Positions 2,561-49,269 of a stretch of DNA of 64,000 nt are shown here, in pieces. Origin of the DNA: a virus (lineage: Duplodnaviria > Heunggongvirae > Uroviricota > Caudoviricetes); the IMG/VR virus record IMGVR_UViG_3300042341_001208. One strand, 5' to 3'. The translations under genes were made by a program, and so were the position numbers. Every line of letters begins with the position of its first letter. Within the stretch, counting starts at the first letter, position 1. The notes under the pieces are model-generated. The model was not told the DNA's origin, searched no databases, and saw only the letters and a program-made list of their open reading frames with translations.

Positions 2561-3088
2561 ATGAATATGACAACTCAAGAATTTATAAAATTTTGCAAAC
2601 ATCAACACGATGTAGAATGCAACCAAAAGTATGGAAAGATCCATCCTTATTCCTTTCACCTTGATCTAGTAGCTACCCAAGCTAAAAAGTTCGAAGAACT
2701 CCTAGGTGATTTTGATCTAGACCTAGATAAAACAATTATGGCATCATGCTACGGTCACGATCTGATCGAAGATGCCAGAGTTACCTACAACGATATCAAA
2801 GAAATGGTGGGAGAGAAGATCGCAGATATTATCTACTGTTGCACCGAAGAGAAAGGTAAAAACAGAGATCAAAGACACAGTGAGAAGTATTTTGCCGAAC
2901 TGAAAGAAAACGAACTTGCAATCTTCGTTAAACTTTGCGACATCACTGCCAATGTTAAATATTCTCTTTTAACAGACTCTGGAATGTTTAAAAAATACAG
3001 AAAAGAATTTCCTAAAGTTAAAGAACATCTTTACGTAGAGAAATTCAAACCCCTGTTTGACCACCTAGAATCAATCCTTTCAATCTAA
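2561..3088 (+). CDS. HD-domain phosphohydrolase (175 aa)
   Basis: His...HD...D pattern: SFHLDLV, CYGHDLIEDARV, CDITAN; small HD hydrolase fold; promoter motif immediately upstream. Confidence 0.6.
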   Translation: MNMTTQEFIKFCKHQHDVECNQKYGKIHPYSFHLDLVATQAKKFEELLGDFDLDLDKTIMASCYGHDLIEDARVTYNDIKEMVGEKIADIIYCCTEEKGKNRDQRHSEKYFAELKENELAIFVKLCDITANVKYSLLTDSGMFKKYRKEFPKVKEHLYVEKFKPLFDHLESILSI

Positions 3089-3506: not shown

Positions 3507-4064
3507 ATGGAAACTAAAAAAATCATCAAGTATGCAGTAATGGGCATCATCGGACTTTTTGTATTTGGTATCTTTACCAGCATCATTTCAACCTCAAACC
3601 AAGAGGTGGATTTGAGAAACAGATTCAAACAAAAGATGGACGAGAGAACAGCATTCTACGACAAAATGTGGAAAACTATTTCCCAGAAATCTCAAGTTGC
3701 TCTTCGAAATGACAGCTCATTTGCAAACAACGTGAATGCAATCATGGCAGGAAGAAAGGACGCACAAGGGCTATTTATGAAATGGGTTCAGGAATCAAAT
3801 CCGAATGCGAACTATGAAACCGTATCCTCTTTGTATGCCGATCTAAGCCGAACTATTGAAGGCCAGAGAGATGGATTCTTCATGGAAGAAAAAATGATCC
3901 AGTCGATAGTGCTAGAACATGATAACATCATGGGTAAATTTCCTTCAGGGGTTATTCTTTCAACCTTCATGGGCAGAACTAAGCTAGTCTACAAACCTAT
4001 AACTTCAGATGTTACCGACGAGGTCATCAAGACAGGTAAAGACAACAACACGAAAGTGTTCTAA
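3507..4064 (+). CDS. hypothetical protein with N-terminal transmembrane anchor
   Basis: 185 aa; N-terminal hydrophobic segment AVMGIIGLFVFGIFTSIIS; GACCGTATAT motif 28 nt upstream. Confidence 0.5.
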   Translation: METKKIIKYAVMGIIGLFVFGIFTSIISTSNQEVDLRNRFKQKMDERTAFYDKMWKTISQKSQVALRNDSSFANNVNAIMAGRKDAQGLFMKWVQESNPNANYETVSSLYADLSRTIEGQRDGFFMEEKMIQSIVLEHDNIMGKFPSGVILSTFMGRTKLVYKPITSDVTDEVIKTGKDNNTKVF

Positions 4065-4980: not shown

Positions 4981-4990
4981 GACCGTATAT
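4981..4990 (+). promoter_or_regulatory. GACCGTATAT promoter-like motif
   Basis: ctGACCGTATATttactaaataataaa, 23 nt upstream of ATG 5014, just after terminator 4935-4964. Confidence 0.5.
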
Positions 4991-5013: not shown

Positions 5014-6222
5014 ATGTTAATCTGGCTTTGTCTACTAATTCCTCTCATTGGAGCAATCGTTCTTCTTAAATGGTACAAACACACCCTAGTCTGGTGGGAA
5101 GTTCTAGTCCCTCTAGTTTCCTGCTTCTTCTTTATCCTAATCTTCAAATTCACAGTTGAAAAGATTCAAACCAGCGACACCGAGTATAAAGGTGCTCTCA
5201 TAGTTGAAGCTAGATACTACGAGTACTGGGAAACTTATGTTAGAAAAACCTGTTATAGAACTCATAAAGTAGGGAAGACAACTATTACAACTTCCTATGA
5301 TTGTTCTTATTGCGATCACAATCCGGAACACTGGACGATGATAAATTCTTTGGGACAAGAATTCTCTATTACCAAGGAACACTACGAAAAATTAAGAAAG
5401 CTCTGGAATTCTACCCCTCAATTTTTAGAATTGAACCGTAGTATAAACCACAGCTTCTTTGGATGCGGTAAGGATGGAGATGCATACGTAATCAAATGGA
5501 ATTTAAATCCTTTGACCTCCAGATCTACCACGGAATCAAACACCTACGACAATAGGGTTCAAGCTGCACATTCTGCTTTTGATTTCTTAGAAGTATCTGA
5601 GGAAGATGTAAAAAGATATAAACTATTCGAATATCCAGAAATTAAAGGTTACACCCAAGAGAATGTATTAGGTCTAGATTCTATGCCCTATATTCCAAAA
5701 AGTAAAATTGACACTTTCAAAATTTTAGCTCATTATTTGAATGGAAAGCTAGGTCCAGAAAAACACGCCAGAATTTATTTCCTCTTCTTTGAGGCTAAAG
5801 ATCAGCTAACAGCATCCATGCAAGAGGCTTACTGGGACGGAGGTAATGATAACGAATTGGTTATCTGCATAGGAATAGATCCGAAGACTCAGAACCTAAA
5901 CTGGGTAAAACCCTTCTCCTGGACTCCTAATCGACAAGTGATACCGGAAATCCGAGAGGAGATTATGGAAGTAGGTAAATTTGATCCGGTAGCAATTTCT
6001 AACCGAGTGGAGGGTGTGGTTAGATCCAAATACAAAAGAAAAGACTTTAGAGAATTCTCTTATCTGACAGTAGATCCTCCAGCTTGGTCTATCTGGGTTA
6101 CCGCAATTCTTACCGCAATTATTACCTTCTTATTATCCAGATGGGCGGCAATCAACGATATAGGTAACGATGGAGATATGTCAGGAGACTTTTTTAGCAG
6201 AAAGAGAACTTACAGATGGTAA
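5014..6222 (+). CDS. membrane protein, function unknown
   Basis: 402 aa; N-terminal (LIWLCLLIPLIGAIVLL, VPLVSCFFFILIF) and C-terminal (IWVTAILTAIITFLL) TM helices; promoter motif 23 nt upstream. Confidence 0.5.
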   Translation: MLIWLCLLIPLIGAIVLLKWYKHTLVWWEVLVPLVSCFFFILIFKFTVEKIQTSDTEYKGALIVEARYYEYWETYVRKTCYRTHKVGKTTITTSYDCSYCDHNPEHWTMINSLGQEFSITKEHYEKLRKLWNSTPQFLELNRSINHSFFGCGKDGDAYVIKWNLNPLTSRSTTESNTYDNRVQAAHSAFDFLEVSEEDVKRYKLFEYPEIKGYTQENVLGLDSMPYIPKSKIDTFKILAHYLNGKLGPEKHARIYFLFFEAKDQLTASMQEAYWDGGNDNELVICIGIDPKTQNLNWVKPFSWTPNRQVIPEIREEIMEVGKFDPVAISNRVEGVVRSKYKRKDFREFSYLTVDPPAWSIWVTAILTAIITFLLSRWAAINDIGNDGDMSGDFFSRKRTYRW

Positions 6223-6239: not shown

Positions 6240-6830
6240 ATGGCAACAATAAAAGATAAGTGGCACTGGAAATTACAAAGATGGGTTAAACACGATTTAC
6301 CCTATCTGCATCTAGAATTTGCAAGGGGAATTAAAAACCTATGGAGATGGTTTCCTGTCATTTGGAAAGACAGAGATTGGGACGATCACTACATCTTTGA
6401 AATCCTGAAGACCAAGTTGAAGAACCAAGCAGAGTACATCGGAACTAGAAACATTCACACTAGAGCAAAGAGAGATTCTGAGATAATGCTTCTTTGTGCT
6501 AGATTGACGGAAAAGGTTCAGGAAGAATTTTATTCAATGGAATACATGGACTACCACGAGTCAAGATACAATTGGATCGACTCTGAAGATTTTCCAGATT
6601 CCAAACAATTAGAAATAGAGGAAATTTCTGAGAACTATGACGAGTATCTTGCAAAACACAAATTGGCAGTAAAAAGAGTTATCTCTGATCCTAAGCATCA
6701 AATTTTCAAATTGACAGAGGATGACTATAAACAAAGACTAGCGATGAACGTCTCCCATTATAATCACAAAAGAGCAAGAAAAATTCTTTTCGAATTAATG
6801 GAAAGAAATATTGAGGGCTGGTGGGATTGA
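6240..6830 (+). CDS. hypothetical protein
   Basis: 196-aa ORF, Trp-rich N-terminus, no recognisable motif. Confidence 0.45.
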   Translation: MATIKDKWHWKLQRWVKHDLPYLHLEFARGIKNLWRWFPVIWKDRDWDDHYIFEILKTKLKNQAEYIGTRNIHTRAKRDSEIMLLCARLTEKVQEEFYSMEYMDYHESRYNWIDSEDFPDSKQLEIEEISENYDEYLAKHKLAVKRVISDPKHQIFKLTEDDYKQRLAMNVSHYNHKRARKILFELMERNIEGWWD

Positions 6831-7250
6831 GCAGATTTCGTACCCTATATATGATATATAAATTGAATAATATTTACATATCAAGCCAAGAAAAAAACAT
6901 CTACTCATTATATTTAAAAAACAACCTGCACAATTACTAAAAAATTTTATATTGGGATTCTTTCTACATCTATTTTGGATGATGGATATTTAGGATCTGG
7001 AGTAAAATTAACCAGATCTGTTAAGAAATATGGAAAATACAATCACATTAAAGAAATTCTAGAATACTTGAGTGATAGAGAGTCTTTATTATAATAAAAG
7101 AATTATTAGTAAACGAAGATCTAATAAATGATCCATTTTGTATGAATTTAATAGTAGGAGGAAATTTTTCGGGGCTCAATTATCGTAAAGAACACACCGA
7201 AAAAACTAAAAATAAAATTTCTTCTAAATAAAGGGAAAATAGAAAAAATT

Positions 7251-10200
7251 ATGGCTCAAAAGTATTTGAGCAAAGCTTTGGCTTTCGCTTTAACCTTGTT
7301 TGCAACACAAGGAAATCTTCATGCAGCATGCGGGAATCTCACACCGAGTTTCAGTAATGCATCCAACAAAACCTGTGGTATACCTCAGGTAATTACACTT
7401 ACCAATACTTCCACTGGAAACAGTCGAAATGTAGCCACCTACAAGTGGTATGTGGGTACCACACTGCTGAGCACACAAGTTGGCAAATCCACCCAAAAAT
7501 ACACCATCAACACTGCAGGTAGCTATACCTTCAAGTTGGTGGCGATAGATACGGGTAAGGTGGGCTGTAAAGACAGCACAAGCACTACCATTACCATTTC
7601 GGCATCTGTTCCGAGAATTTTGGATGGCAATAGAGTAAATACCTATTCTCCCATTTGGGAAAATTGTATAAGTTCATTGGGGGTTCCTGACACCTTTGGT
7701 ATAAATATCAAACCTCAGGATTCATTGCGAAATTACACCATAGTTTGGGGGGATGGCACCGGTAATTCTACTGGCACTTTACTGCTTAGCAGCCAATCCC
7801 TCTACCATAAGTATAATTCACTAGGACAATTTACTTTATTAATCATCGGAACAAAGGGAAGTTGCACTGATACCCTTCGAGGTGTGGTGTCGAATGAAAG
7901 AAATCCTGTGGCTGGAATTGTGGGTCCACCAACAGGAACCAATGCAGGTTGTGTGCCCATTCGCATGCGTTTTATCAATAACTCTTCCTTAAGCTCACCT
8001 AGCACCACTTTTACCTGGGATTTTGGCAATGGCGAAACCATAGTAAGGGGATTCAATACCCACAAAGACACTTTATTTTATACCTATAAGCGCTTTTTGT
8101 GTAATGGCATCGTGAAACTTACTCAAACCAATAATTGTGGTTCGAGTTTTGCCACCTGGAACCCAATCATGGCTTCCTCTAAGGATACTGCCATTATTGC
8201 GCCGACCAATCCGACCAACTGCGATCTTGCTGTACCTTTTACGTTTAACAATACCTCTCAAAATCGTTTTTGTAGCACGCCAAACAATAAGAAATACCTC
8301 TGGGTTTGGGGCGACGGAACCAATTCTGGTTGGAGTACTTCTTCTGCTTCGCAGTCTAAAACCTACAGCAAGCGCGGTGTGTACCAGGTCTTGCTGATTG
8401 ATTCAAATGGCTGCGGTAAAGATACTGCAAGGTATACCTTGCGTATCGATAGCATGCCTACCATTTCTGCAGGCCCAGCGTCGGCTGCAGGATGCTCACC
8501 TTTGGTGGTAAACTTCAGAGACAACAGCATAAATGCAACTTCTAGAAATTGGGATTTTGGATATGCAACACCAACAAGCAGTGCGCAAAACCCAACCCAT
8601 ACCTATCAAACAGGTGGTACATATAGAGCAGTGCTGACAGTAGCCAACAATTGTGGATCATTAAAAGATACTGTCCTTATTACTGTCAAACAAAAAGTAA
8701 AGGCAAACTTCAATACACCGCTTACTGGCTGTGCTCCATTAACACAGAAATGGACCAATACATCTGTCAAAGGATTGGCAGGAACCCCTACATATTTCTG
8801 GGATTTTGGGGACGGAACAACTTCTACCCAGGTGAATCCTCCAGATAAAACTTACTCTACGTTAGGGACATATACCATTACACTCATTGCTACAGACTCA
8901 TGCGGTAAGGATACCATTAAAAAGACGTTTACCGTCCGTGGTAAGCCCTCTGCTACAATTACTTTGTTATCTTCAAGCCGGTGTGTGGGCAGCACTTTAG
9001 ATATTCGCTTTGTAACCTCACCCGTAAATACAGCTTCAGTTATCTGGGGTGATGGAACCAATGGCAGCAGTTATTTCGGATTGGGTGGTTCAGTTGACCG
9101 CACGGTTTCCAGAAAATACGACAGTCTGCGCACCTACAGATTTGGGGTAGTTATGGTGGATCCAAGCGGTTGCCGAGACACCAATTACCTAAACATTGCA
9201 ATGGATCCAAGGCCTACGATGAACTATACCTACACCACAACCAATGGTTGTGGTCCTTTGGATGTTACATTTACCAATACCAGTGCGCACAATGGAGGGG
9301 GTAACATCAACCAAATGAAGTTCTTATGGAACTTTAGTAATGGTATATTGGCTTACAGCAAAGATACTGCAGCTAGGTTCTTGCCGTTTAAAACAAGAGA
9401 CTCTATTTATCCCGTTAAATTAATTGGAACAAACGCCTTTGGCTGCAGAGATTCCATTACCAAAACGGTTCGAGTTTATCCAAAACCATTGAGTAAATTT
9501 AGTATTAGTGAAAAGGATGGTTGTGCACCTTTGGATATTACTACTACGAACAATTCTACTCCATATGACACGGGTTCTATAAACATAATGAAGTTTATAT
9601 GGGACTTTGGCAACGGCAGGAAAGCGTTTGGTAAAGATACTGCTGCTCGATTCTTAGCCAGTAAAACAAAAGATACTGTGTATACTGTTAGTCTGATATC
9701 TATTTCTGAACATGGTTGCCGAGATACCAGTTCAACCACAGTGCGTATTTATCCAAAACCTAAAGCCTTATTTACCAGAAGTAAAACTGAAGGTTGCAAA
9801 CCACTCGGGGTTACCTATGTCAACCAAAGTGTACCCTACGATACCGGCAATATATCAATAATGAGTTTTGCTTGGGATTTAGGAAATAGAATTACCTCAT
9901 TCGCTACAGAACCTGTGGGTATCTATAATGATGCGATAAACAAAGATACTACTTATAAGGTACGTTTGATTGCCACTAGTGAGCACGGATGCAAGGATAC
10001 TGCAAATTCCACTGTACTGTTACATCCGAATCCGGTGATTAAATTTGATATGAGCCGCACCAATGGCTGCGGTCCATTGCCTGTGAGCTTCTCGAACAAG
10101 AGCATCAACGGCGATGCATTTACTTGGGAGTTTGGCGTATATGGAACTGATACCGCAAAGAGTCCTAGTAAGGTATTCTATGGCCGCGATATTTTTGACT

Positions 10201-12344
10201 CAGTAGTAGTGGTGAAGCTTAGCGCGATGAGCAAATTTGGCTGCTTGAGTGATACGCTAAAAGACGAAGTGACGGTTTTTGGATTACCTATTGCCAACTA
10301 TCTAGTTTCAACAGATACCTTCTGTTTCCCTGACCTGACGCAGTTTTTGAACCAAAGTTTGGCTTCCTACAACTACACTTGGGATTTGGGCGATGGCACT
10401 GTAACAGGAACTACAAACCCCAAACATTTCTTCAAGAAAAGCTCAAGTCCATTTAGTGATACTACCTATTTCATCAAACTTGTTGCTACAAGCCCTTACG
10501 GATGTAAGGACACCGCAAACGGCAGTATGACCGTATTGCCTTACCCTATTCCAAAATTCAGTGTTGACAATCCTGCGGGTTGTGCGTCACACACAGTGAA
10601 GTTCAACAACCAGTCGGTAAACGTGTTGAATTACCTGTGGGTATTTGGAGATGGATATACATCAACCGATGTGAACCCTACCCATACCTTTATAAATACC
10701 GGTGCGAATGATACGGCGTATCAGGTTGTTCTTTATACCTACTCTTTGGATTGTGTAGACTCTACTAGTATTTGGATACCAGTTTACAAGCCCTCGTATT
10801 CATTCTTCAGAACGGACCGGGTAAATCCATGTGATGCTGGATATTTTAAATTCCAGAGCTTTGGCGAAAATGCGCCAATTGTGAAGTACAATTTTGGTGA
10901 TGGTAGCACATCAACTTTTCCCAACCTAACGCATTTATTCCCAACCTCACCTTACACCGATACAAGCTTCATCGTTACACTATACACCACAAGCAATCGC
11001 GGTTGCACAGACAGCTTTAAACGCACAGTTACGCTCCCACAGCGACTTTCTATCGGAATGAAAGACACCAGTTATGCGCTATGTGCTCCGACGGTAATTC
11101 AGTTTACAAACTACACAAGGGGTGCACGCACATATATTTGGGACTTTGGAGATAATGGAGGAAGTTCTCAGAAGAACCCAATTTATGAATACCAAAAACC
11201 GGGCTTATACGCATATAAGTTGTTTGCCTTTGACGCAAATGGGTGTATTGACAGTCAGGTTTCAAACGGCACTGTTCGTGTGGATGTGAGTCCTAAAGCG
11301 GATTTTGACTTTAGTCCTGGTAAAGGCCGCATGCCAAATGACAACCGTATTTTCTTTACTGACAAGAGCCGCAGTGTGATACCACTGACCTATTTCTGGG
11401 ATTTCTCGGATCCAGCGGGTATACCTGCAACGAGTACGATTCAAAATGCAACCCACGATTTTAGCGACTCTGGAGACTATAAAATCTGTTTGACGGTAGA
11501 TAATGGGGGTTGTAAGAATATATTTTGCAATTTTGTACGCATCGATCCGGCATTTCCAACCCCAGATTTCTCGGTGGGTGGGGATTCGGGTTGCCCACCT
11601 CTTACCGTGCAGTTTACCAACCTTTCTGTGAACTCTGACCGCTATATATGGTTCTTTGGTGACGGTGAAAGAAGCGAGGACAAAGACCCAGTCCATACCT
11701 ATAAGTACAGCGGATATTACGACGTGATTTTGATCGCAAAAGGTCCAGGGGGTGAGGGTAAAACGGAGAAGAAGCAGTTCATAAAAGTATTGAATGCACC
11801 ATTCACGTATTTCAATCTCACGCCCTCTATATTGTACCTTCCTGATGCCAAATTCACAACTCGAAACCTGACTACTGGAGCTGTAGGATATCAGTGGAAT
11901 GTGTACAACAGCAGCACTAGAAATCGAGTTGGGAATAGCCTTTTGGTGAATCCCTATTTCCAAGTAAACGATACGGGGCATTATGATGTGGAATTGATTT
12001 CAGTAAGCAGTCAGGTCTGTTATGATACCCTATTGTTGCCCAAGCCCATCTACGTGAATCCACGTGGCATATTGCATGTACCGGATGCCTTCACACCTAC
12101 CAATGATGAACGCAACGATGTGTTTAAACCAAGCGCGATAAACGTGCAAAAGGATTTCTATCTCTTCCAGATCTATAACAGATGGGGTGAAATCGTATTC
12201 GAAACCAAAGACCCCGATGAGGGTTGGGACGGCCGTAAAAAGGGCAAAATATGCCAAAGTGGAGTCTATGTATATAAAATCAATGCAAGACTCTTCAGCG
12301 GGGATGATATTTCAGCGGATGGTGTGGTTCACTTGATTCGATAG
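7251..12344 (+). CDS. giant secreted PKD-repeat protein with T9SS (gliding-motility-type) C-terminal sorting domain
   Basis: Signal peptide MAQKYLSKALAFALTLFATQGNLHAAC; at least 12 PKD-like repeats (GC.PL.V.F.N.S...W.FGDGT...NP.H.Y...G.Y.V.L.A...GC.DT); C-terminus LHVPDAFTPTNDERNDVFKP...YNRWGEIVFET...GWDG...GVYVY matches CHU_C/T9SS type-B CTD; TAG stop. Confidence 0.8.
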   Translation: MAQKYLSKALAFALTLFATQGNLHAACGNLTPSFSNASNKTCGIPQVITLTNTSTGNSRNVATYKWYVGTTLLSTQVGKSTQKYTINTAGSYTFKLVAIDTGKVGCKDSTSTTITISASVPRILDGNRVNTYSPIWENCISSLGVPDTFGINIKPQDSLRNYTIVWGDGTGNSTGTLLLSSQSLYHKYNSLGQFTLLIIGTKGSCTDTLRGVVSNERNPVAGIVGPPTGTNAGCVPIRMRFINNSSLSSPSTTFTWDFGNGETIVRGFNTHKDTLFYTYKRFLCNGIVKLTQTNNCGSSFATWNPIMASSKDTAIIAPTNPTNCDLAVPFTFNNTSQNRFCSTPNNKKYLWVWGDGTNSGWSTSSASQSKTYSKRGVYQVLLIDSNGCGKDTARYTLRIDSMPTISAGPASAAGCSPLVVNFRDNSINATSRNWDFGYATPTSSAQNPTHTYQTGGTYRAVLTVANNCGSLKDTVLITVKQKVKANFNTPLTGCAPLTQKWTNTSVKGLAGTPTYFWDFGDGTTSTQVNPPDKTYSTLGTYTITLIATDSCGKDTIKKTFTVRGKPSATITLLSSSRCVGSTLDIRFVTSPVNTASVIWGDGTNGSSYFGLGGSVDRTVSRKYDSLRTYRFGVVMVDPSGCRDTNYLNIAMDPRPTMNYTYTTTNGCGPLDVTFTNTSAHNGGGNINQMKFLWNFSNGILAYSKDTAARFLPFKTRDSIYPVKLIGTNAFGCRDSITKTVRVYPKPLSKFSISEKDGCAPLDITTTNNSTPYDTGSINIMKFIWDFGNGRKAFGKDTAARFLASKTKDTVYTVSLISISEHGCRDTSSTTVRIYPKPKALFTRSKTEGCKPLGVTYVNQSVPYDTGNISIMSFAWDLGNRITSFATEPVGIYNDAINKDTTYKVRLIATSEHGCKDTANSTVLLHPNPVIKFDMSRTNGCGPLPVSFSNKSINGDAFTWEFGVYGTDTAKSPSKVFYGRDIFDSVVVVKLSAMSKFGCLSDTLKDEVTVFGLPIANYLVSTDTFCFPDLTQFLNQSLASYNYTWDLGDGTVTGTTNPKHFFKKSSSPFSDTTYFIKLVATSPYGCKDTANGSMTVLPYPIPKFSVDNPAGCASHTVKFNNQSVNVLNYLWVFGDGYTSTDVNPTHTFINTGANDTAYQVVLYTYSLDCVDSTSIWIPVYKPSYSFFRTDRVNPCDAGYFKFQSFGENAPIVKYNFGDGSTSTFPNLTHLFPTSPYTDTSFIVTLYTTSNRGCTDSFKRTVTLPQRLSIGMKDTSYALCAPTVIQFTNYTRGARTYIWDFGDNGGSSQKNPIYEYQKPGLYAYKLFAFDANGCIDSQVSNGTVRVDVSPKADFDFSPGKGRMPNDNRIFFTDKSRSVIPLTYFWDFSDPAGIPATSTIQNATHDFSDSGDYKICLTVDNGGCKNIFCNFVRIDPAFPTPDFSVGGDSGCPPLTVQFTNLSVNSDRYIWFFGDGERSEDKDPVHTYKYSGYYDVILIAKGPGGEGKTEKKQFIKVLNAPFTYFNLTPSILYLPDAKFTTRNLTTGAVGYQWNVYNSSTRNRVGNSLLVNPYFQVNDTGHYDVELISVSSQVCYDTLLLPKPIYVNPRGILHVPDAFTPTNDERNDVFKPSAINVQKDFYLFQIYNRWGEIVFETKDPDEGWDGRKKGKICQSGVYVYKINARLFSGDDISADGVVHLIR

Positions 12345-12393
12345 ACTATCTGTGTAACAAGATGGCATAATGAAAATTGTAATAATAAAAATT

Positions 12394-12403
12394 GACCGTA
12401 TAT
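12394..12403 (+). promoter_or_regulatory. GACCGTATAT promoter-like motif
   Basis: 7 nt upstream of ATG 12411. Confidence 0.45.
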
Positions 12404-12410: not shown

Positions 12411-12761
12411 ATGGCAATAAAATACAAAGAGTTTAAAAAGAAATTACAAAACGAACCCCTAACCGAAGAGGAATTAACCATTATTCAGGAGACAGAAGAT
12501 TATATTGACTCTGAAATTCTAAACCAATTTCCGAAGAGCAATTACGGAGAGGTTCTAATTGATTTGACTTATCCGTCTTTTACCTACTCTCATCAAAGAG
12601 GTTCTTTGATGGACTCAAATTCATATAGAAGATCCTTGATGAGATCCGAATTAGAAAAAAGATACAAATCAGCCGGATGGAAGATAGAGGTTAAATTCGA
12701 CGATGGACTGGATGGACCTAATATGTCCGGTCCAGATTATTGGATATTAAAAGGAAAGTAG
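12411..12761 (+). CDS. hypothetical protein
   Basis: 116-aa ORF; promoter motif 7 nt upstream. Confidence 0.45.
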   Translation: MAIKYKEFKKKLQNEPLTEEELTIIQETEDYIDSEILNQFPKSNYGEVLIDLTYPSFTYSHQRGSLMDSNSYRRSLMRSELEKRYKSAGWKIEVKFDDGLDGPNMSGPDYWILKGK

Positions 12762-12771
12762 GACCGTATAT
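12762..12771 (+). promoter_or_regulatory. GACCGTATAT promoter-like motif
   Basis: gGACCGTATATttataaaaataacaatATG, 16 nt upstream of prs start 12788. Confidence 0.5.
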
Positions 12772-12787
12772 TTATAAAAATAACAAT

Positions 12788-13690
12788 ATGTTACAATTAA
12801 ATTTAGCAGACTCAGATAAGTCACAGATCAAATTTAAACCATCTGCATTTCCAGACGGCCAGCAATCAATCACTTTAGCTCTGTCCACAATCTCAGATCT
12901 AGAAATATCTTGCACAATCAAGTCCAGATTAAATTCTTTCAGGGATTTAGAACTCATAGTCTGCGCAGCAGCTGCATTGAGAGAAGCTGGAATGGAAAGA
13001 ATTCACCTTTATATTCCATACTGTCTAGGCGGAAGATCTGACATCAAATTTGAAGAAGGTGGCTTAAACTACATCAAGAGTGTAATTGCACCTATCATCA
13101 ATTTACAAAAATTTACTTCTGTTACCGTCATGGATGCTCACTCGATAGCTCTAGAAAATTGCATTGATAATTTGAAAAAGCTAGACAATTCTTATCTTGC
13201 AAAATGGGCAATCAAGGATCTATCTTCAGAAGGAGGAGATTTCAAATTGGTCTCTCCTGATGCTGGAGCACTAAAGAAAATATTCTCAACAGCTAAATCT
13301 ATCGGATATAAAGGAGAAATAATAGTTGCTGAAAAAGTTAGAGATTTATCTACCGGAAAAATTATTCACACCAAGGTACCTATAAACGTTTATGATGCAG
13401 ATAAAGATTTTATCATTATAGATGATATCTGTGACGGTGGGAGAACATTCATAGAAATCGCCAAGGCTATAGAAGAAATGAGATCTTTAAGTTCAGTGGT
13501 TCATCCAGATAAGCACGGAAAAAATTACCTTATCGTAACTCACGGCATCTTCAGCGCAGGATTTGAAGAACTTAGTAAATATTTTGATAGAATTTATACC
13601 ACCAATTCTATCTCCGAAATAAACGAGTCTGAAAATTACAAAGGTGCTGAATTTGATAAACAATTTGTTAAACAACTAAACGTATTCTAA
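12788..13690 (+). CDS. prs: ribose-phosphate pyrophosphokinase (PRPP synthetase)
   Basis: Start set to ATG 12788 just after the promoter motif; motifs VTVMDAHS, KLVSPDAGALKK, IIIDDICDGGRTF (PRTase-type PRPP loop), LIVTHGIFS. Confidence 0.75.
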   Translation: MLQLNLADSDKSQIKFKPSAFPDGQQSITLALSTISDLEISCTIKSRLNSFRDLELIVCAAAALREAGMERIHLYIPYCLGGRSDIKFEEGGLNYIKSVIAPIINLQKFTSVTVMDAHSIALENCIDNLKKLDNSYLAKWAIKDLSSEGGDFKLVSPDAGALKKIFSTAKSIGYKGEIIVAEKVRDLSTGKIIHTKVPINVYDADKDFIIIDDICDGGRTFIEIAKAIEEMRSLSSVVHPDKHGKNYLIVTHGIFSAGFEELSKYFDRIYTTNSISEINESENYKGAEFDKQFVKQLNVF

Positions 13691-13691
13691 A

Positions 13692-14165
13692 ATGAAAGAA
13701 ACACTAGAATTGAGAATGTATGGATTAGTTCCATATAACTTAAGCCCCATCCAGCAAGGGATCCAATTTGGACACGCAGTTGTTGAGTATGGGTTAACCC
13801 ATTTCGGAGAAAAAAATTACCGGGATTGGGCTAACAATCATAAGACCTTTATCATTCTCAATGGAGGGACTACTAATAATTCCATAGATAAAGAAACAGG
13901 AAATCCAAAAGGAACTTTAAATCAGCATGCGGTAAACCTTAGAGATATGGGGATTCCTTTTTGCACCTTTTATGAGCCTGACTTAGGGGATCAATTAACA
14001 GCAGTAGTTTTTCTAGTAGACGAACATGTCTTCAACAGAGAAAAATATCCGGATCCAAGAGATCCATTTAATCAGGATTGGGCTTGGTCTGAGCATCTTA
14101 GCACAGAAGAACTTTCTAGAGTTTTGCAAATGAGAGACTTTTTAAAACAATTTAGATTAGCATAA
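13692..14165 (+). CDS. PTH2-like (peptidyl-tRNA hydrolase 2 family) protein, divergent
   Basis: LRMYGLVPYNLSPIQQGIQFGHAV and FYEPDLGDQLTAVVFL parallel the KMILVVRNDL...AAQCSHA and DAG..T.l.igP segments of PTH2; paralog of the TAG-containing ORF at 25811. Confidence 0.4.
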   Translation: MKETLELRMYGLVPYNLSPIQQGIQFGHAVVEYGLTHFGEKNYRDWANNHKTFIILNGGTTNNSIDKETGNPKGTLNQHAVNLRDMGIPFCTFYEPDLGDQLTAVVFLVDEHVFNREKYPDPRDPFNQDWAWSEHLSTEELSRVLQMRDFLKQFRLA

Positions 14166-14686
14166 TGGAATCATACTCAGAAATAGAAGGAGATTTAATC
14201 TCATTAGCAAAGCAAGGTAAATTTGAAGTTATCACCCATGGATGTAATTGCAGATCCCAAATGGGAGCAGGGATTGCACCACAAATGGCAAAAGCATTTG
14301 GATGCGATAAATTCGAAATGGAAACTTGGGGTCCAACTATCGAAAAATTAGGCTGCATAGATTATGAAACTGTAGTTCTAGGAGAAAATGCAATCTGGAG
14401 TCTTCTGGATGCTAAAAATAACCGAAACGAACCTGAATTGGCCGTTGTTAATTCTTACACCCAAAACTACTACGGAAAGAATCACTCAGATGGGGTTTCC
14501 AAACCTTTAGACTACGAGGCTTTAACCCTTTGCATGAGGAAGATCAATTCTACCTTTAGAGGCAAACACATAGGAATGCCAAAAATAGGAGCAGGATTAG
14601 CTGGAGGAGATTGGAACAGAATAAAAAAAATCATACAGACCGAATTAAAAGACTGTAAAGTAACTATAGTAATATACAACAAATAA
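14165..14686 (+). CDS. macrodomain protein, TARG1/OARD1/DarG-like (Macro_2 type)
   Basis: GDLISLAKQGKFEVITHGCNCRSQMGAGIAPQMAKAFG matches the GDLF...SLAHCIS.D..MGAGIA..F...FG signature of TARG1-type ADP-ribose hydrolases. Confidence 0.6.
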   Translation: MESYSEIEGDLISLAKQGKFEVITHGCNCRSQMGAGIAPQMAKAFGCDKFEMETWGPTIEKLGCIDYETVVLGENAIWSLLDAKNNRNEPELAVVNSYTQNYYGKNHSDGVSKPLDYEALTLCMRKINSTFRGKHIGMPKIGAGLAGGDWNRIKKIIQTELKDCKVTIVIYNK

Positions 14687-14706
14687 ATTAAATAAAATAA
14701 AATATC

Positions 14707-15066
14707 ATGGACAATCAAATTGATGAAATGACCGGAACCTTGGAAGAAATGAAAGGTGCATTCGTAGGCTCTTTAGTGCGTAACAACAAAAAGATCCGCG
14801 AAGACAGAGCAATCGCAATCGCAGAAGCTGCTCAAATGCTCTACAAAAGAAAAGTTGAGGACACAGAATTAGCTATTAAACAGCTAAAAAGAGAAAGAGA
14901 ATCTATGTTAGACCTTAGTCCAACAACAGCAGATTCTTTGGTAATGGCTTCAGATTTTGACGCAGAAGCTTTCATCCAAAAGGATGTAGAGATCGGTCTC
15001 AAAATTAGAAATTTAGAGATCACTCTAGAAATTGCAAGAACTCGTTACAACCACTTATTTGAATAA
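14707..15066 (+). CDS. coiled-coil hypothetical protein
   Basis: 119 aa, heptad-like charged/hydrophobic pattern. Confidence 0.4.
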   Translation: MDNQIDEMTGTLEEMKGAFVGSLVRNNKKIREDRAIAIAEAAQMLYKRKVEDTELAIKQLKRERESMLDLSPTTADSLVMASDFDAEAFIQKDVEIGLKIRNLEITLEIARTRYNHLFE

Positions 15067-15071
15067 TCCGT

Positions 15072-15953
15072 ATGGGAAATTCAAGTTATTCTACCTATAA
15101 TAGATCCATCAGATCCGAATCTTTTGGCTATCATAGCAAATCAAGAAACGAGATCTTTACCCAAAGTAAAGAGGGTAAAGCTCACGAGCAAATGAGACCT
15201 AAAGGAATCGTCTACAGAGAATGTAGAGATTCCGAGGCTCACCCGAATGCTACCCCGATTCAGCTTTATTTGGACGTTACCGGAAGCATGGGACATATTC
15301 CCCACGAAATGATTAAAGACGGTTTACCAACTTTAATGGGGAATCTAATTCAAAGAGGTGTAGAGGATGCTTCCCTTATGTTTGGAGCTATCGGTGACCA
15401 CGAATGTGACAAATCACCTCTCCAAGTTGGACAGTTTGAATCTGGTGACGAAGAATTGGACATGTGGCTTACCAGAACCTGGCTCGAAGGCGGAGGTGGT
15501 GGAAACGGCGGAGAAAGCTATCCATTAGCTTGGTATTTCGCAGGAAATCACGTTGCAACAGATGCTTGGGAGAAGAGAAACCAAAAAGGATTCGTATTCA
15601 CTATCGGTGATGAGCCTTTCCTTAATTCTCTACCAATGTCTGCAGTAAAGGAAATCATGGGGGATTCAGCATCAGGCCAATCTACTTGGGATGCTACAGT
15701 TCTTCTAGAACAAGCTCAAAAGACAAATCACGTTTTCCATATCTTCTTAGAACATGGTTACAGAAAAGTTGATTCGGCTTGGAAAGAATTAATGGGAGAT
15801 CACCTTATAGTTGCAAAAGACTATAAAGATATCCCGAAAATTATCTCAGAAACAATTTTAACTATTCAAGGGGAAAGAAAACCTTCTGAGAATGCGACCG
15901 TATATTCTAGTAATACTACAGATGAAAAAGACTCTGTAGATATTATCCTATAA
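15072..15953 (+). CDS. von Willebrand factor A (vWA) domain protein
   Basis: MIDAS-like LYLDVTGSMG (DxSxS) then Rossmann-like layout; Gly-rich loop EGGGGGNGGE. Confidence 0.55.
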   Translation: MGNSSYSTYNRSIRSESFGYHSKSRNEIFTQSKEGKAHEQMRPKGIVYRECRDSEAHPNATPIQLYLDVTGSMGHIPHEMIKDGLPTLMGNLIQRGVEDASLMFGAIGDHECDKSPLQVGQFESGDEELDMWLTRTWLEGGGGGNGGESYPLAWYFAGNHVATDAWEKRNQKGFVFTIGDEPFLNSLPMSAVKEIMGDSASGQSTWDATVLLEQAQKTNHVFHIFLEHGYRKVDSAWKELMGDHLIVAKDYKDIPKIISETILTIQGERKPSENATVYSSNTTDEKDSVDIIL

Positions 15954-17011
15954 TGAATACGAGCAAAATAGTAATTGGACTAAACTACGGAGACGAAGGA
16001 AAGGGGTTAACCACCTCTTTCCTCTGTTCCCAATCTAAAAATCCCATCGTTGTTAGATTCAACGGGGGTCACCAAGCAGGTCACACAGTATCCTTCAAAG
16101 GAAAAAGACATGTGTTTTCTAGCTTTGGATCAGGAACACTTCAAAAAGTTCCAACGTACTGGAGCAAATATTGCACATTCTCTCCGACAGCATTTCTAAA
16201 TGAATTAAAATTTCTACTGGATAAATCTTTAAAATTCCCAGGATTTTATCTTGATCCTTTATGTCCAATCACAACACCTTACGATTTATACAGCAACCGA
16301 AAAGATTCCCAGAATGTGAGTCATGGAACAGTCGGGGTAGGATTTGGATCAACTCTTAAAAGACACGAAAACTTTTATAAGCTTTATGCACAGGATATGT
16401 TCTATCCAGAAGTCTTCAAAGCAAAATTAGAAAACATTGCTAAGTATTACGGAATGGAGGATCTCGAAATCGATAACTTTTTAGAAGACGTAACAATTGT
16501 AACTACTATAGTTCAATTGACAAATGAAAAAGTTCTTTTAAATTATTCAGATGCTATATTTGAAGGGGCTCAAGGGGTTCTTTTAGATATGGATTTTGGA
16601 TTTTTTCCAAACGTTACCAGATCTAATACAACATCTAAAAATGCACTGGAAATTTCTCCTCTGCATTCAAACGAAATCTACTACATCACAAGATCTTATT
16701 TAACTAGACACGGAGCTGGATTTCTTCCAGGAGAAAAAGAACTTCCCCTAATTAATAATGAATTGGAGACAAACGTCTCTCATGAATACCAAGGAAATTT
16801 TAGAACAGCAGATTTAGATTTGGATCTTCTAAACTATTCTTTAAAATGTGACTCTCATTTTTCTGAGGGTCAAACCAAAAATCTAGTAATTACCTGCATG
16901 GATCAATATCCAATAGATGTAGAAAAATTGCTAGAAAAATTAGAAATTAAATTCAATAAAGTGTTCGTCTCTTACGGGGATTCACTTGATAAAATACAAC
17001 AATTAAAATGA
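15953..17011 (+). CDS. short adenylosuccinate synthetase homologue (PurA family; PurZ candidate)
   Basis: GDEGKG P-loop (IGLNYGDEGKGL), GGHQAGHTV, EGAQGVLLDMDFGFFPNVTRSNTT, TRHGAGFLPGE; 352 aa, shorter than bacterial PurA (about 430 aa), like archaeal PurA and phage PurZ. Confidence 0.7.
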   Translation: MNTSKIVIGLNYGDEGKGLTTSFLCSQSKNPIVVRFNGGHQAGHTVSFKGKRHVFSSFGSGTLQKVPTYWSKYCTFSPTAFLNELKFLLDKSLKFPGFYLDPLCPITTPYDLYSNRKDSQNVSHGTVGVGFGSTLKRHENFYKLYAQDMFYPEVFKAKLENIAKYYGMEDLEIDNFLEDVTIVTTIVQLTNEKVLLNYSDAIFEGAQGVLLDMDFGFFPNVTRSNTTSKNALEISPLHSNEIYYITRSYLTRHGAGFLPGEKELPLINNELETNVSHEYQGNFRTADLDLDLLNYSLKCDSHFSEGQTKNLVITCMDQYPIDVEKLLEKLEIKFNKVFVSYGDSLDKIQQLK

Positions 17012-17481
17012 AAATAACAGAAAAATATGTCTTCTTTTGGAACGGGATTTATTCTCAGTGGCACAAAGCAAAAATGACAATCGACGGTGTTGAGTATAGC
17101 TCTTGTGAGCAATATATGATGCATCAAAAAGCTATCGTCTTCAGCGACTTTTATATTGCATCTCAGATACTTCTGACAGAGAATCCGAAAGAGCAAAAAG
17201 CACTCGGAAGACAAATTCAAGGGTTTGATAAAAACATTTGGGATTCGGTTTGCTTGAGCATAGTCTATAAAGGAAATCTAGCTAAATTTTCTCAAAATGA
17301 GGATCTAAAATCAGATCTTCTTTCCACCGAGAATAGAATCCTGGTAGAAGCTTCACCCTTGGATCAAATTTGGGGAATTGGAATGGCAGAGGATCATCCA
17401 AATATAGAATCTCCAGAACACTGGAGGGGACTGAACTTGCTTGGATGGGCGTTAAACTTAGTAAAAAAAGAATTAAATTAA
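17008..17481 (+). CDS. NADAR (YbiA/DUF1768) domain protein
   Basis: FFWNGIYSQW...IDGVEYSSCEQYMMHQKA...KALGRQIQ...IWD...KFSQNEDLKSDLLSTENRILVEASPLDQIWGIGM matches NADAR family conserved blocks. Confidence 0.65.
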   Translation: MKITEKYVFFWNGIYSQWHKAKMTIDGVEYSSCEQYMMHQKAIVFSDFYIASQILLTENPKEQKALGRQIQGFDKNIWDSVCLSIVYKGNLAKFSQNEDLKSDLLSTENRILVEASPLDQIWGIGMAEDHPNIESPEHWRGLNLLGWALNLVKKELN

Positions 17482-17721
17482 ATGAAAAGTACAGAATTTG
17501 CATATTGGTTACAAGGGTTCTTCGAACTTAGCGAAACTAACACCTTGTCGGAAAGACAGGTCGAAACTATTAAAAATCATTTGAAGCTGGTTTTCTATCA
17601 TGAGATAGATCCTTCCTATTCTACAGATCCTGTAGTACAGGAAACCATGCAAAAAATTCACGACGGAGAACCTCAAAAGAGAACTCCGAGAAATTCTAAC
17701 CCAAGAACTATAAAATGTTAA
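17482..17721 (+). CDS. hypothetical small protein (tandem paralog A)
   Basis: AYWLQGFFEL...RQVETIKNHLKLVFYHE parallels next gene. Confidence 0.4.
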   Translation: MKSTEFAYWLQGFFELSETNTLSERQVETIKNHLKLVFYHEIDPSYSTDPVVQETMQKIHDGEPQKRTPRNSNPRTIKC

Positions 17722-17984
17722 CCATGGAAGAAACAAGAAATTTTGTTATCTGGCTTGATGGATTTCTAGAAGCTTGCGGGCCAACTCCAACTAAGGAGCA
17801 GGTCGAAAAAATAAAATCCAGGCTGAATGGAATTTTTGAGCATGTTGCAGAAATCCCAGCTAAGGAGAACGAAAAACCGTCTCTAGAGGAATTAGGACAA
17901 GAACATGGATTTAATGTATATCCCGGATTTCCTGGATCAGGATTTCCTTTTAGAGATGAAGGTGGTGGTTTATTAAGATGCTAA
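17715..17984 (+). CDS. hypothetical small protein (tandem paralog B)
   Basis: FVIWLDGFLEAC...KEQVEKIKSRLNGIFEHV parallels the previous gene; Gly/Pro-rich tail. Confidence 0.4.
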   Translation: MLTMEETRNFVIWLDGFLEACGPTPTKEQVEKIKSRLNGIFEHVAEIPAKENEKPSLEELGQEHGFNVYPGFPGSGFPFRDEGGGLLRC

Positions 17985-18329
17985 ATGAGTAGAGTAATTT
18001 ATATAGCTTCTCCTTATTCTAATCCCGACCCTGATGTTACCGAGGAGAACTTTAAAAAAGTCTCGAGGCTTGCGGCTAAGCTTTGCTCAGAGGGTCAGGT
18101 TGCAATTTCCCCTATTACTTATGGTCACACGCTGGTTGGATTTAAACCAATGCCAATTGACTGGCCATTCTGGGAGAATTTTTGTCTTTCCATTCTCCAG
18201 GCTTGTGACGAAATCATAGTTTATAAAATGGAAGGTTGGGATAGATCGAGAGGTGTTGCAGAAGAGGTCGAATTTGCCAGAAGAAAAGGAATCCAGATCA
18301 CGTATATGGAATATGATCCTTCTATCTAA
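17985..18329 (+). CDS. nucleoside 2-deoxyribosyltransferase-like (DUF4406-type) protein
   Basis: VIYIASPYS...GQVAISP...DEIIVYKMEGWDRSRGVAEEVEFARRKG pattern of the Ndt/DNPH1-like flavodoxin-fold family. Confidence 0.45.
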   Translation: MSRVIYIASPYSNPDPDVTEENFKKVSRLAAKLCSEGQVAISPITYGHTLVGFKPMPIDWPFWENFCLSILQACDEIIVYKMEGWDRSRGVAEEVEFARRKGIQITYMEYDPSI

Positions 18330-18337
18330 CCGTATAT
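18328..18337 (+). promoter_or_regulatory. GACCGTATAT-family motif (AACCGTATAT)
   Basis: 17 nt upstream of ATG 18355. Confidence 0.45.
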
Positions 18338-18354
18338 TTAAATAAAATACCTTT

Positions 18355-18798
18355 ATGGAATTAAGAGAATATTTCGAAACAAATCCGGACTCTATCCCTT
18401 ATCTAGAAAGACTAGAAAGTGAATGGGAACAGTATGGAAAGATAATCATCGGATGTGATTATGACGACACAATTTCCCCATGGAAGATGGAGAATTTTAA
18501 TCCAGAAAGGGTTCTAGAAGTTCTAAAGGTTGCTAGAGAAACCGGAGCTTACATCGTAATCTTTACTTCTTGTGACAAAGCAAGATATCCAGAAATCGAA
18601 GACTATTGTAAAAGCATTGGCCTCACAATCGACTCGATCAATAAAAATCCAATCGACTTACCTTACGGTAAAAAAGGTAAAATCTATGCCAACATTTTCC
18701 TGGATGACAGAGGTGGAATGAATGAATCCCTAAACATTCTAGAAATGGCAACGTATAGAATTAGAGGAAAAAGAAGAGTTTTAGGAATCAACGTATAA
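18355..18798 (+). CDS. HAD-superfamily phosphatase-like protein
   Basis: Motif I IIIGCDYDDTI (DxDxT), motif III-like NIFLDDRGG; promoter motif upstream. Confidence 0.45.
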   Translation: MELREYFETNPDSIPYLERLESEWEQYGKIIIGCDYDDTISPWKMENFNPERVLEVLKVARETGAYIVIFTSCDKARYPEIEDYCKSIGLTIDSINKNPIDLPYGKKGKIYANIFLDDRGGMNESLNILEMATYRIRGKRRVLGINV

Positions 18799-18806
18799 TT
18801 AAGAAA

Positions 18807-18971
18807 ATGAAAATGAACCCAAAAGAAAAAGAATTGGAAAATATCCAATCCCAACAAAACCCTTCAAAAGAGGTTAATCCAACCGAGTCTGTAATAATAA
18901 AACAGATCGAGGATGATTTTGAATATCAAGAATATTATTCAGAAAATTCTCCTAATTTCGACGTAGATTAA
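18807..18971 (+). CDS. possible small acidic ORF (54 aa), not in supplied track
   Basis: ATG..TAA ORF MKMNPKEKELENIQSQQNPSKEV... fills the gap before the NAMPT promoter; coding status uncertain. Confidence 0.25.
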   Translation: MKMNPKEKELENIQSQQNPSKEVNPTESVIIKQIEDDFEYQEYYSENSPNFDVD

Positions 18972-18978
18972 TCAGGAG

Positions 18979-18988
18979 GACCGTATAT
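18979..18988 (+). promoter_or_regulatory. GACCGTATAT promoter-like motif
   Basis: gGACCGTATATtcaataaaataataaat, 20 nt upstream of nadV ATG 19009. Confidence 0.5.
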
Positions 18989-19008
18989 TCAATAAAATAA
19001 TAAATATT

Positions 19009-31433: not shown

Positions 31434-31769
31434 ATGAATCAAACAGTAAACCTACTTAAGACCGGATCCGAATATATTTTAGCTCTTCCGAGAGGGAAAA
31501 GACTAGAAAAAGGAGATTTTGCAATAGGGGTGTCCAACTCTTATTCAAAGGTTTCTTCTGTTAAAGAAGGGGATTATTTTGATGCTAGAATTTACTATCT
31601 TGAAGATGGTAGCTGTCTAGTAAACCCAATTAAAATTGTGGGATTTGAATCCGATATAGATCCAGAGGTTCTAACAAAAATAAAGGAACTTAAAGAAGTT
31701 CCTTTGTATATCGAGATCGTAGAAAACCAGATCGTTCGTGAATCTGGTAAGATTAAAGTTATTTATTAA
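31434..31769 (+). CDS. hypothetical protein
   Basis: 111-aa ORF; last + gene before strand switch. Confidence 0.4.
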   Translation: MNQTVNLLKTGSEYILALPRGKRLEKGDFAIGVSNSYSKVSSVKEGDYFDARIYYLEDGSCLVNPIKIVGFESDIDPEVLTKIKELKEVPLYIEIVENQIVRESGKIKVIY

Positions 31770-43901: not shown

Positions 43902-43936
43902 GAAACTTATCTTTCTTTTCCTGGTATAAATCAAAT

Positions 43937-44692: not shown

Positions 44693-44729
44693 ATTCTAAA
44701 TAAATTTGGATCTTTGATACATATTTTAT

Positions 44730-45505: not shown

Positions 45506-45533
45506 TCTTTGGGATAATTTCCCTTATATATTT

Positions 45534-48568: not shown

Positions 48569-48569
48569 G

Positions 48570-49253: not shown

Positions 49254-49269
49254 TAATATATAAAATAAA

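Follow-up and report, generated by a model that had tools for sequence, protein, structure and literature searches.

A jumbo phage of freshwater Flavobacteriales carrying a captured host adhesin gene with predicted Sec and type IX secretion signals

The subject of this report is one gene in a stretch of 64,000 nucleotides, hereafter the window, taken from IMG/VR virus record IMGVR_UViG_3300042341_001208 (Caudoviricetes). The gene, an open reading frame (ORF) at positions 7251-12344 of the plus strand, encodes a 1697-residue protein of tandem PKD repeats that ends in a type IX secretion system (T9SS) sorting domain. Comparison with bacterial genomes identifies it as a captured host gene, transferred from host to phage; it belongs to no established phage family and is a recent xenologue of a gene on the host chromosome. 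The evidence somewhat favors a reading in which a freshwater jumbo phage of a Flavobacteriales lineage has this captured adhesin exported and exposed on the infected-cell surface. The locus preserves a base-level record of the capture of a large host gene, comprising a bare coding sequence, a junction within the apparent remnant of a homing endonuclease, the loss and repair of a start codon and a region-specific relaxation of constraint. It also provides a firm host assignment, unusual for an uncultured jumbo phage, in the form of a co-occurring Flavobacteriales population. Phage T9SS cargo was previously known as type A; here it is type B, its passenger is a giant adhesin and its donor can be traced. 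Capture of an adhesin suggests that infected cells display a phage-encoded coat protein.

Domain architecture and predicted export signals

An earlier note, made from the letters of the window, had placed the ORF at exactly these coordinates and had seen in its product at least 12 PKD-type repeats and a C-terminal T9SS type B domain. The ORF list, Pfam, NCBIfam, a profile made from the protein's own repeats and an alignment of the capture junctions bear this out, the start codon being a renewed ATG, and the repeat count turned out to be conservative. The protein begins with a predicted signal peptide (approximately residues 1-26), continues with 18 PKD-like domains (residues 42-1596) and closes with a type B T9SS C-terminal domain (CTD; residues 1609-1697). 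As delineated with the self-derived profile, the 18 units stand in tandem with a period of approximately 90 residues and the CTD follows directly. Pfam scores PKD_4 (PF18911) at 306.6 bits over 10 tandem stretches and PKD (PF00801) at 150.9 bits, both above cutoff.

The sorting domain, encoded at 12075-12341 on the plus strand, is recognized by Pfam, NCBIfam and alignment alike. CHU_C (PF13585) matches residues 1609-1679 with 56.6 bits (cutoff 27), and TIGR04131, the T9SS type B model of NCBIfam, gives 44 bits (cutoff 35) with the full protein, rising to 49.9 bits with the last 100 residues as sole query; the type A model TIGR04183 scores under its cutoff on the same protein. The CTD terminates at the final residue. 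Aligned with type B CTDs of diverse bacteria and phages, it keeps all the blocks PxAFTPxxDxxNDxF, NRWGExxF, GWDG, GVYVY and GxVxLxR, which could not be matched one-to-one to the published motifs A-E. At the opposite end, the N-terminus MAQKYLSKALAFALTLFATQGNLHA/AC (the slash marking the predicted cleavage site) has, by inspection, the layout of a Sec signal peptide: an n-region with K4 and K8, a hydrophobic core of 10 residues and an LHA/A site, conserved across all orthologues. The lipobox position reads L-H-A-A-C, in which the -3 histidine departs from the canonical [LVI][ASTVI][GAS]C; the cysteine is kept in orthologues, where the -3 residue is variable (H, Q, I, Y or R), and the lipoprotein-like character that the earlier note gave to the signal peptide is at most tentative. 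These features support the prediction of a phage-borne cargo bearing both signals required for Sec and T9SS export.

Searching PHROGs with the protein returned no family. The composition of the ORF, 43.2% guanine plus cytosine (GC) and 41.8% at third codon positions (GC3), compares with 35.5% GC in the remainder of the window and contradicts the 33 percent given in the earlier note.

Chromosomal origin, capture junctions and phage context

A search covering 5.8 billion proteins returned full-length orthologues of approximately 1690-1760 residues, at identities from 97% down to approximately 41%. Every orthologue whose context was inspected, one of them on a 1.47-Mb contig, lies at a single conserved chromosomal locus in the order IleRS, DksA/TraR, LspA, Der GTPase, RlmN and PKD/CHU_C gene, with an epimerase, UDP-glucose dehydrogenase and DegT on the 3' side in the opposite orientation. 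This conservation of chromosomal synteny across the orthologues argues for transfer from bacterium to phage; the reverse direction was considered and rejected, since synteny holds in orthologues down to 41% identity. At the donor locus (our loci L001, L002, L004 and L006) the three genes on the 3' side place the adhesin beside sugar genes of the O-antigen type. Many bacterial records call the gene at 1751 residues, apparently through over-extension of the start by 54 codons.

The closest genome record is a Flavobacteriales metagenome-assembled genome (MAG; JBEIRK010000018.1, locus L011) with the same chromosomal synteny. By blastn it is 96.3% identical in DNA to the window over 7232-12359 only, with 188 mismatches and no gaps, and the flanks are unrelated. 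Seven bacterial alleles form a tight cloud, 0-11 residues and at most 29 nucleotides apart, and the phage copy stands approximately 183 nucleotides and 49-51 residues from each of them, with 166 fixed differences from all seven. A compositional comparison with host homologues, of the kind that the earlier note had proposed, found that the phage copy retains donor-like GC and GC3. The JGI and SRA sample identifiers of the bacterial alleles interleave with those that yielded the phage, which leads us to infer a common ecosystem for the phage and the donor lineage.

The earlier note had offered capture from the host as one option and had pinned the host to phylum. The 96.3% identical chromosomal allele and the defined junctions substantiate the first, and, because the identity extends over a 5.1-kb gene, they give a precise host link that refines the second to a specific freshwater Flavobacteriales lineage. 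This lineage has T9SS cargo of its own: an esterase with a Por_Secre_tail (a type A T9SS tail) is encoded a few genes upstream in the same locus.

The captured segment of host DNA spans 7232-12359 on the plus strand, and consists of the bare coding sequence with approximately 19 nucleotides of 5' flank and 15 of 3' flank. Homology to L011 begins 7 nucleotides before the host ATG (7232 as against 7239) and ends 15 nucleotides past the stop codon; neither the host promoter nor the host terminator hairpin lies within the segment. Aligned base by base, the former host start codon at 7239-7241 (plus strand), ATG in all bacterial alleles, now reads ATA, and the phage ATG at 7251 arose from a host ACG four codons downstream of the old start. 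Four substitutions fall within 20 nucleotides at this 5' junction, against a gene-wide rate of 3.7%. A classical moron is an autonomous insert that brings along a promoter and a terminator. The present insert, having neither, is no classical moron, although it resembles one as an extra gene between conserved phage genes that is missing in relatives.

Directly upstream, at 6890-7231 on the plus strand, lies what appears to be a truncated and frameshifted pseudogene of a GIY-YIG-like homing endonuclease, in three frame segments with several stops and covering approximately the N-terminal half of the protein only. Its hand-stitched translation matches phrog_314 'homing endonuclease' (E=1.4e-9), and a related jumbo-phage contig (L134, 18327-19001) encodes an intact homologue of 224 residues that is 42% identical (E=4e-13) and shows the motifs HYIY...KYYIG. 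The GIY-YIG class is a soft assignment: the intact homologue scores 22.9 bits against Pfam SegE_GIY-YIG, just below the cutoff of 25, and Pfam finds no GIY-YIG match in the stitched remnant. Rfam likewise returned no match on the 420-nucleotide stretch before the gene (6831-7250). What the earlier note described as an AT-rich leader at this place is most probably the decayed endonuclease gene instead. The end of the remnant coincides exactly with the capture junction, and the 3' half of the endonuclease occurs nowhere downstream, so the insert appears to have replaced that half; we infer that a nuclease-induced break may have started the capture.

The viral setting supposed in the earlier note is upheld, and the window is confirmed by its gene content as part of a jumbo phage. 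Dozens of its ORFs match phage-only PHROG families, among them phage tRNA nucleotidyltransferase, NAMPT, PRPP synthetase, PurZ-like adenylosuccinate synthetase, ClpB-like ATPase and HNH endonucleases; several match function-unassigned families at 160-200 bits, and the gene at 3507-4064 matches phrog_1383 'virion structural protein'. No bacterial housekeeping gene is present in the 64 kb. Homologues of the 402-residue neighbor (5014-6222) occur in three isolated jumbo phages of Tenacibaculum, PTm1, PTm5 and pT24, and also in Prevotella Lak phages and Bacillus phage G. This neighbor and a 185-residue gene are kept together, at 54-82% identity, on viral contigs of IMG/VR that reach 219-434 kb. 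The longest contig bearing the window sequence itself is 126.8 kb, and megablast of 25 kb against GenBank phages gave no match.

Immediately 5' of the remnant region stands a 196-residue phage ORF with no function assigned (6240-6830, plus strand), identified from the ORF list and homologue neighborhoods. The exact adhesin protein and identical flanks recur on at least 14 contigs from separate JGI and SRA assemblies, and every contig with the exact 196-residue protein also bears the adhesin gene, which excludes a chimera and shows fixation of the gene in this phage's population. This population is near-clonal, with 0-2 single-nucleotide polymorphisms per 5.6 kb. Within the IMG/VR subset searched, full-length relatives of the protein were absent and matches were to single PKD domains only. 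An empty site was not found by any route: relatives reached through the 402-residue neighbor have just two upstream genes in common with the window, those reached through the 196-residue neighbor hold other small genes in the slot, and the contigs with the exact 196-residue protein are all occupied. By this comparison the insertion slot is a hypervariable accessory region. A real phage genome, variable slot content and a T9SS CTD, the marks of phage-encoded T9SS cargo, are all found here.

Selection, predicted export and rival explanations

Against the L011 allele, the phage copy shows a synonymous divergence (dS) of 0.122 and a nonsynonymous divergence (dN) of 0.0138, giving dN/dS=0.11. With a 91% identical orthologue as outgroup, the phage branch carries 38 nonsynonymous (N) to 46 synonymous (S) changes (omega approximately 0.24) and the bacterial branch 10 N to 49 S (approximately 0.06; Fisher p=5.6e-4). 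The use of all seven bacterial alleles gives 36 N to 45 S versus 7 N to 42 S (p=4.6e-4). Since synonymous change is symmetric between the branches, the excess is specifically nonsynonymous. The phage branch itself lies far under neutrality (p=1.5e-10), and the 5.1 kb of the phage copy contain neither indels nor stop codons. In neutral simulations with 104-124 substitutions, the probability of no stop is 0.02-0.04, and 75-89 replacements are expected against approximately 43 observed. These counts indicate purifying selection along the branch to the phage copy, relaxed or partly redirected since capture. Of the 'evident selection' claimed in the earlier note, the purifying component therefore survives in weakened form in the polarized counts; its argument from an intact frame in AT-rich DNA does not, because the gene keeps donor-like GC.

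Replacements on the phage branch concentrate in PKD domains 7-12 (residues 636-1113; 9156-10589, plus strand). This region, 28% of the length, holds 21 of the 36 polarized nonsynonymous changes (p=2.5e-4) and 28 of the 45 fixed phage-private replacements, and the synonymous changes do not cluster there (15 of 45, p=0.51). A mosaic or recombinant origin of the cluster was rejected for the phage branch on the ground that synonymous changes are not enriched. Omega in the region is approximately 0.4, not above 1, and a McDonald-Kreitman-type test gives no significant sign of adaptive change (p=0.83; p=0.13 with the phage branch only). Conversely, the core of the signal peptide has received no replacement, and the CTD differs from the host alleles by two only, N1656D and M1667I.

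A gene-start motif, (G)ACCGTATAT, is placed 4-47 nucleotides before many start codons in the window. All 11 exact plus-strand copies lie in the first 26 kb, with none in the other 38 kb, and allowing one mismatch gives 25 matches against 9.3 expected, a distribution that suggests a distinct transcriptional class for the first 26 kb. The nearest exact copy upstream of the captured gene, at 4982-4990 (plus strand) before the gene at 5014 in the upstream operon, is a possible source of read-through. Beyond the insert, native phage sequence resumes with the exact copy at 12395-12403 (plus strand) that precedes the next phage gene, a 116-residue ORF starting at 12411. The earlier note held that the common motif was lacking from the region before the adhesin gene; this is correct for the 380 nucleotides upstream of 7251, whereas a one-mismatch copy, ACCCTATAT, was found by the motif scan at 6842-6850 (plus strand), at the 5' end of the 420-nucleotide stretch. 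Before the endonuclease gene decayed, this copy presumably served as its start signal, and it may be a residual promoter for the captured gene. No terminator-like site lies on the plus strand between 6500 and 7250, and a sigma-70 promoter scan showed no enrichment over shuffled sequences. Read-through from the upstream phage gene-start motifs would be the simplest expectation for transcription of the gene. Nothing points to late timing, and the separate, possibly late regulation proposed in the earlier note falls with the leader on which it was built.

Taken together, these observations show that the phage gained the bare coding sequence by illegitimate recombination, the insert taking the place of the 3' half of the homing endonuclease in a hypervariable accessory region, and that the translation start lost with the original codon was restored by an ATG that arose four codons further on. 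For the steps that follow, we propose that the gene would be transcribed by read-through that begins at phage gene-start signals upstream, and that the host Sec system would export its product. Both the host T9SS and the PorP/SprF-type shuttle of the host copy would recognize the CTD, and the protein would end up anchored to, and exposed on, the infected-cell surface. It is tempting to speculate that the benefit lies in an adhesive coat that is maintained, boosted or subtly altered over the long infection cycle of a jumbo phage, and that the replacements in PKD domains 7-12 may reflect changed binding.

The shuttle is central to this proposal. Type B substrates require cognate shuttles that are of low abundance and used stoichiometrically, and 'orphan' type B substrates can use one common shuttle (PMC12618676, PMC9143113). 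No PorP/SprF-like gene adjoins the host copy, whose neighbor is the epimerase on the opposite strand, and a distal host shuttle is assumed by analogy with the orphans of Flavobacterium johnsoniae. Because each type B substrate needs a specific, limiting shuttle, because the host gene counts as an orphan and because no shuttle gene was seen among the phage ORFs scanned, the phage copy would have to vie for the shuttle with the host's own copy and perhaps with further orphan adhesins. Such competition makes maintenance of the adhesive coat and displacement of host adhesins both plausible, and offers a possible route to surface remodeling or exclusion.

Several points weigh against export and display. 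The window ORFs scanned include no PorP/SprF-like shuttle gene, nor does one adjoin the phage gene; substrate overproduced without extra shuttle is not secreted (PMC12618676), and, type B shuttles being scarce and stoichiometric, efficient display is not guaranteed. Constraint on the phage branch is relaxed 4-5 fold relative to the bacterial branch. If the donor was an unsampled sister lineage, approximately 40 neutral changes since capture would leave the ORF intact with P~0.29. None of the related phages sampled has the gene, which is hence no conserved part of this phage group's biology. To these may be added the lack of a gene-start motif in the 380 nucleotides upstream, and a view that takes in 64 kb of a phage genome of at least 127 kb.

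The same points lend themselves to a different account, in which a host coding sequence was taken up accidentally during break repair at or near the homing-endonuclease gene, hitch-hiked to fixation and is now a non-functional passenger at the beginning of its decay. A raised omega, an ORF that some 40 neutral substitutions would quite often leave intact, a gene without promoter, terminator or shuttle gene of its own and unique to this phage among its relatives would all suit a passenger, as would the destroyed original start codon and an almost clonal phage population (0-2 polymorphisms in 5.6 kb). We nevertheless hold this account to be unlikely. An omega of 0.24 is well under 1 (p=1.5e-10), 5.1 kb have passed without any indel, and the in-frame ATG four codons downstream compensates for the start codon that was lost. 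The signal peptide and CTD are nearly untouched while the central PKD replacements cluster without synonymous excess, 5 kb of dead weight would have been kept in every contig seen, and phage type B cargo is a recurrent class.

If the adhesin or the T9SS/gliding layer were the receptor, a phage variant altered in PKD domains 7-12 might take the limiting shuttle, displace the host version and so block later phages. Superinfection exclusion or receptor replacement of this kind would accord with replacements concentrated in a subset of passenger domains beside a conserved shuttle-binding CTD, and with shuttles that are limiting and stoichiometric (PMC12618676). Superinfection or competition roles were suggested for phage T9SS cargo by Bellas et al. 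(PMC7468147), and Flavobacterium phage resistance reportedly maps to gliding-motility and T9SS genes (PMC9804748). We consider it quite improbable all the same: a receptor role of the adhesin for any phage is hypothetical, central omega of approximately 0.4 does not exceed 1, the McDonald-Kreitman-type test is not significant (p=0.83, 0.13), and surface turnover may be too slow inside one infection cycle.

A role in the virion, with the array of PKD (Ig-like) domains as capsid decoration or as a fiber, is very improbable. PKD/Ig-like domains are common on phage virions (Fraser et al. 2006, as cited in PMC6949934), and both the phrog_1383 'virion structural protein' gene (3507-4064) and the gene at 5014-6222 lie nearby. 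However, virion Ig-like proteins share the Ig-fold repeats without the Sec signal and the CTD, whereas this protein retains the CTD and a predicted Sec signal and is 97% identical to a host protein predicted to be secreted. A Sec substrate exits the cytoplasm, the site of virion assembly; moreover, the protein has no PHROG match, and the gene is missing from related phages that keep the neighboring structural-type genes. A chimeric bacterial/phage assembly, or a bacterial contig taken for phage, has almost no probability left: some contigs with the gene are binned into bacterial MAGs and the IMG/VR subset searched lacks the phage contig, but identical junctions in at least 14 independent JGI and SRA assemblies, the 166 fixed differences from all seven bacterial alleles, mutations specific to the junction and 64 kb without a bacterial housekeeping gene stand against it.

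Type B cargo in other phages and further contents of the window

Phage-borne type B cargo is a recurrent class. In IMG/VR we confirmed 285 type B CTD matches (CTD profile, single degenerate pattern), in families that recur at approximately 188, 442, 730-830 and 1511 residues (loci L230-L309). In a sample of 49 complete ORFs, 47 have N-termini that resemble signal peptides; the CTD stands at the very end in 43 of 50, and some of the contigs reach 295 kb; the 188-residue family consists of a signal peptide, one small domain, the CTD and little more. Among GenBank phage records, CHU_C is limited to two uncultured huge phages, LR745206 and LR756502, each of which has several copies, and to one faecal fragment, with none in the cultured phages of GenBank. 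These two genomes, of approximately 640 kb each, have 3-8 CHU_C matching places per genome. The cargo of LR756502 (L222, 512035-525324) is 1670 residues long with 13 SprB repeats, PKD and CHU_C, and that of LR745206 (L223, 9172-22044) 832 residues with Ig_7, PKD and CHU_C; nearby genes are SpoVR-like, glutamate-synthase-like and rhomboid, and no PorP/SprF gene lies beside the CHU_C cargo of either phage. The huge-phage proteins and the IMG/VR families thus share with the window gene a phage setting, a predicted signal peptide, a terminal type B CTD and the lack of an adjacent PorP/SprF gene. They differ in their unrelated passengers and look like established phage families, conserved across many viral contigs. 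The IMG/VR scan suggests that such cargo is frequent among viral contigs, yet the literature searched has nothing relevant on type B (CHU_C) domains in phages and leaves the cargo essentially undiscussed; the window gene serves as a pointer to this widespread class.

Homologues of the 196-residue ORF adjoin unrelated genes with a signal peptide and type B CTD in L245-L247 (2738-6291), L282/L288/L296, L269 and L285. In L245, a 290-kb contig, a 196-residue gene, a gap of approximately 440 nucleotides and an 818-residue cargo gene reproduce the arrangement of the window. A general linkage was rejected, as a CTD gene occurs in 0 of 40 neighborhoods of closer homologues; the 196-residue gene may mark a cargo hotspot in some lineages, or the association may be coincidence. 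Tentatively, and as a rather doubtful extension of export and display, giant phages of Bacteroidota might systematically carry type B T9SS cargo that re-dresses the infected-cell surface via scarce PorP/SprF shuttles, possibly on the gliding-adhesin track. The window would then hold a capture at its origin, in a cargo slot by the 196-residue gene, with the start codon repaired and the central binding domains diverging under phage-specific selection.

The nearest precedent is Cryophage, in which three variable-region genes have type A sorting domains and hijacking of the host T9SS was proposed (Bellas et al. 2020, PMC7468147). There too, T9SS sorting-domain proteins are encoded in flexible regions of a phage genome and proposed to end up at the surface of the infected cell or beyond it. 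The Cryophage CTDs are of type A (PorV shuttle) and sit on enzymes and a PA14 protein, whereas the window gene joins a type B CTD (specific PorP/SprF-type shuttle) to a giant 18-PKD adhesin, with donor allele and junctions identified. De Jonge et al. (2019, PMC6949934) also noted T9SS sorting-domain proteins close to the BACON genes of crAss-like phages, likewise in Bacteroidota phages but without origin or mechanism. Among bacterial systems, the F. johnsoniae orphans Fjoh_1123/1720/4934 (shuttle Fjoh_1677) and SprB/SprF similarly combine a signal peptide (predicted in the window protein), a repeat-rich passenger and a TIGR04131 CTD (PMC12618676, PMC9143113). The host orthologue of the window gene is, like these orphans, a predicted surface adhesin without an adjoining sprF-like gene; the window gene itself differs in being phage-encoded, with a likeness established for the CTD and Ig-like repeats only. 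Cyanophage psbA is a phage copy of a host gene under purifying selection that plausibly sustains a host function in infection. From auxiliary genes of this kind the window gene departs as a structural surface adhesin that would use two host export machines, not a metabolic enzyme, and by its relaxed constraint.

A second decaying homing endonuclease, split or frameshifted, is apparently present on the minus strand, where adjoining and overlapping ORFs at 31766-32728 and 32721-33746 correspond to the C-terminal and N-terminal parts of the HNH homing-endonuclease family phrog_1314. An adenylosuccinate-synthetase homologue matching PurZ-type phrog_1211 (15953-17011) and an HD-type phosphohydrolase of phrog_990 (2561-3088) raise the possibility of a 2-aminoadenine (Z) genome. 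At 12740-20538 lies a set of NAD-salvage and ADP-ribose genes, typical of large phages, that includes PRPP synthetase, NADAR (17008-17481) and NAMPT (19009-20538). A phrog_335 'phosphatase' that by reading is a candidate macro-like protein (14165-14686) and a nucleoside 2-deoxyribosyltransferase-like ORF (17985-18329) are also present. Other auxiliary genes encode a methylenetetrahydrofolate reductase (28780-29739, 222 bits), a ClpB-like double-AAA ATPase (40402-42531, phrog_4871, 798 bits) and an SPFH/Band-7 protein (20614-22536). Homologues of the ClpB-like protein at 57% identity lie a few kb from type B CTD genes in IMG/VR loci L250, L289, L293, L295 and L300.

Further downstream, at 42739-60486, a run of approximately 17 same-strand ORFs of 220-430 residues and 30-34% GC includes two DegT-type aminotransferases (53622-54767 and 58505-59791), methyltransferase-like and weakly glycosyltransferase-like ORFs, and looks like a phage-borne cluster for sugar or glycan modification. 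A tRNA-Ser gene (anticodon TGA, 60490-60575) separates this cluster from a 702-residue ORF with a peptidoglycan-binding domain. Near the start of the window, the ORFs at 648-1226 (192 residues) and 1223-1795 (190 residues) share identical 41-nucleotide starts (648-688 and 1223-1263) and are probably tandem paralogues.

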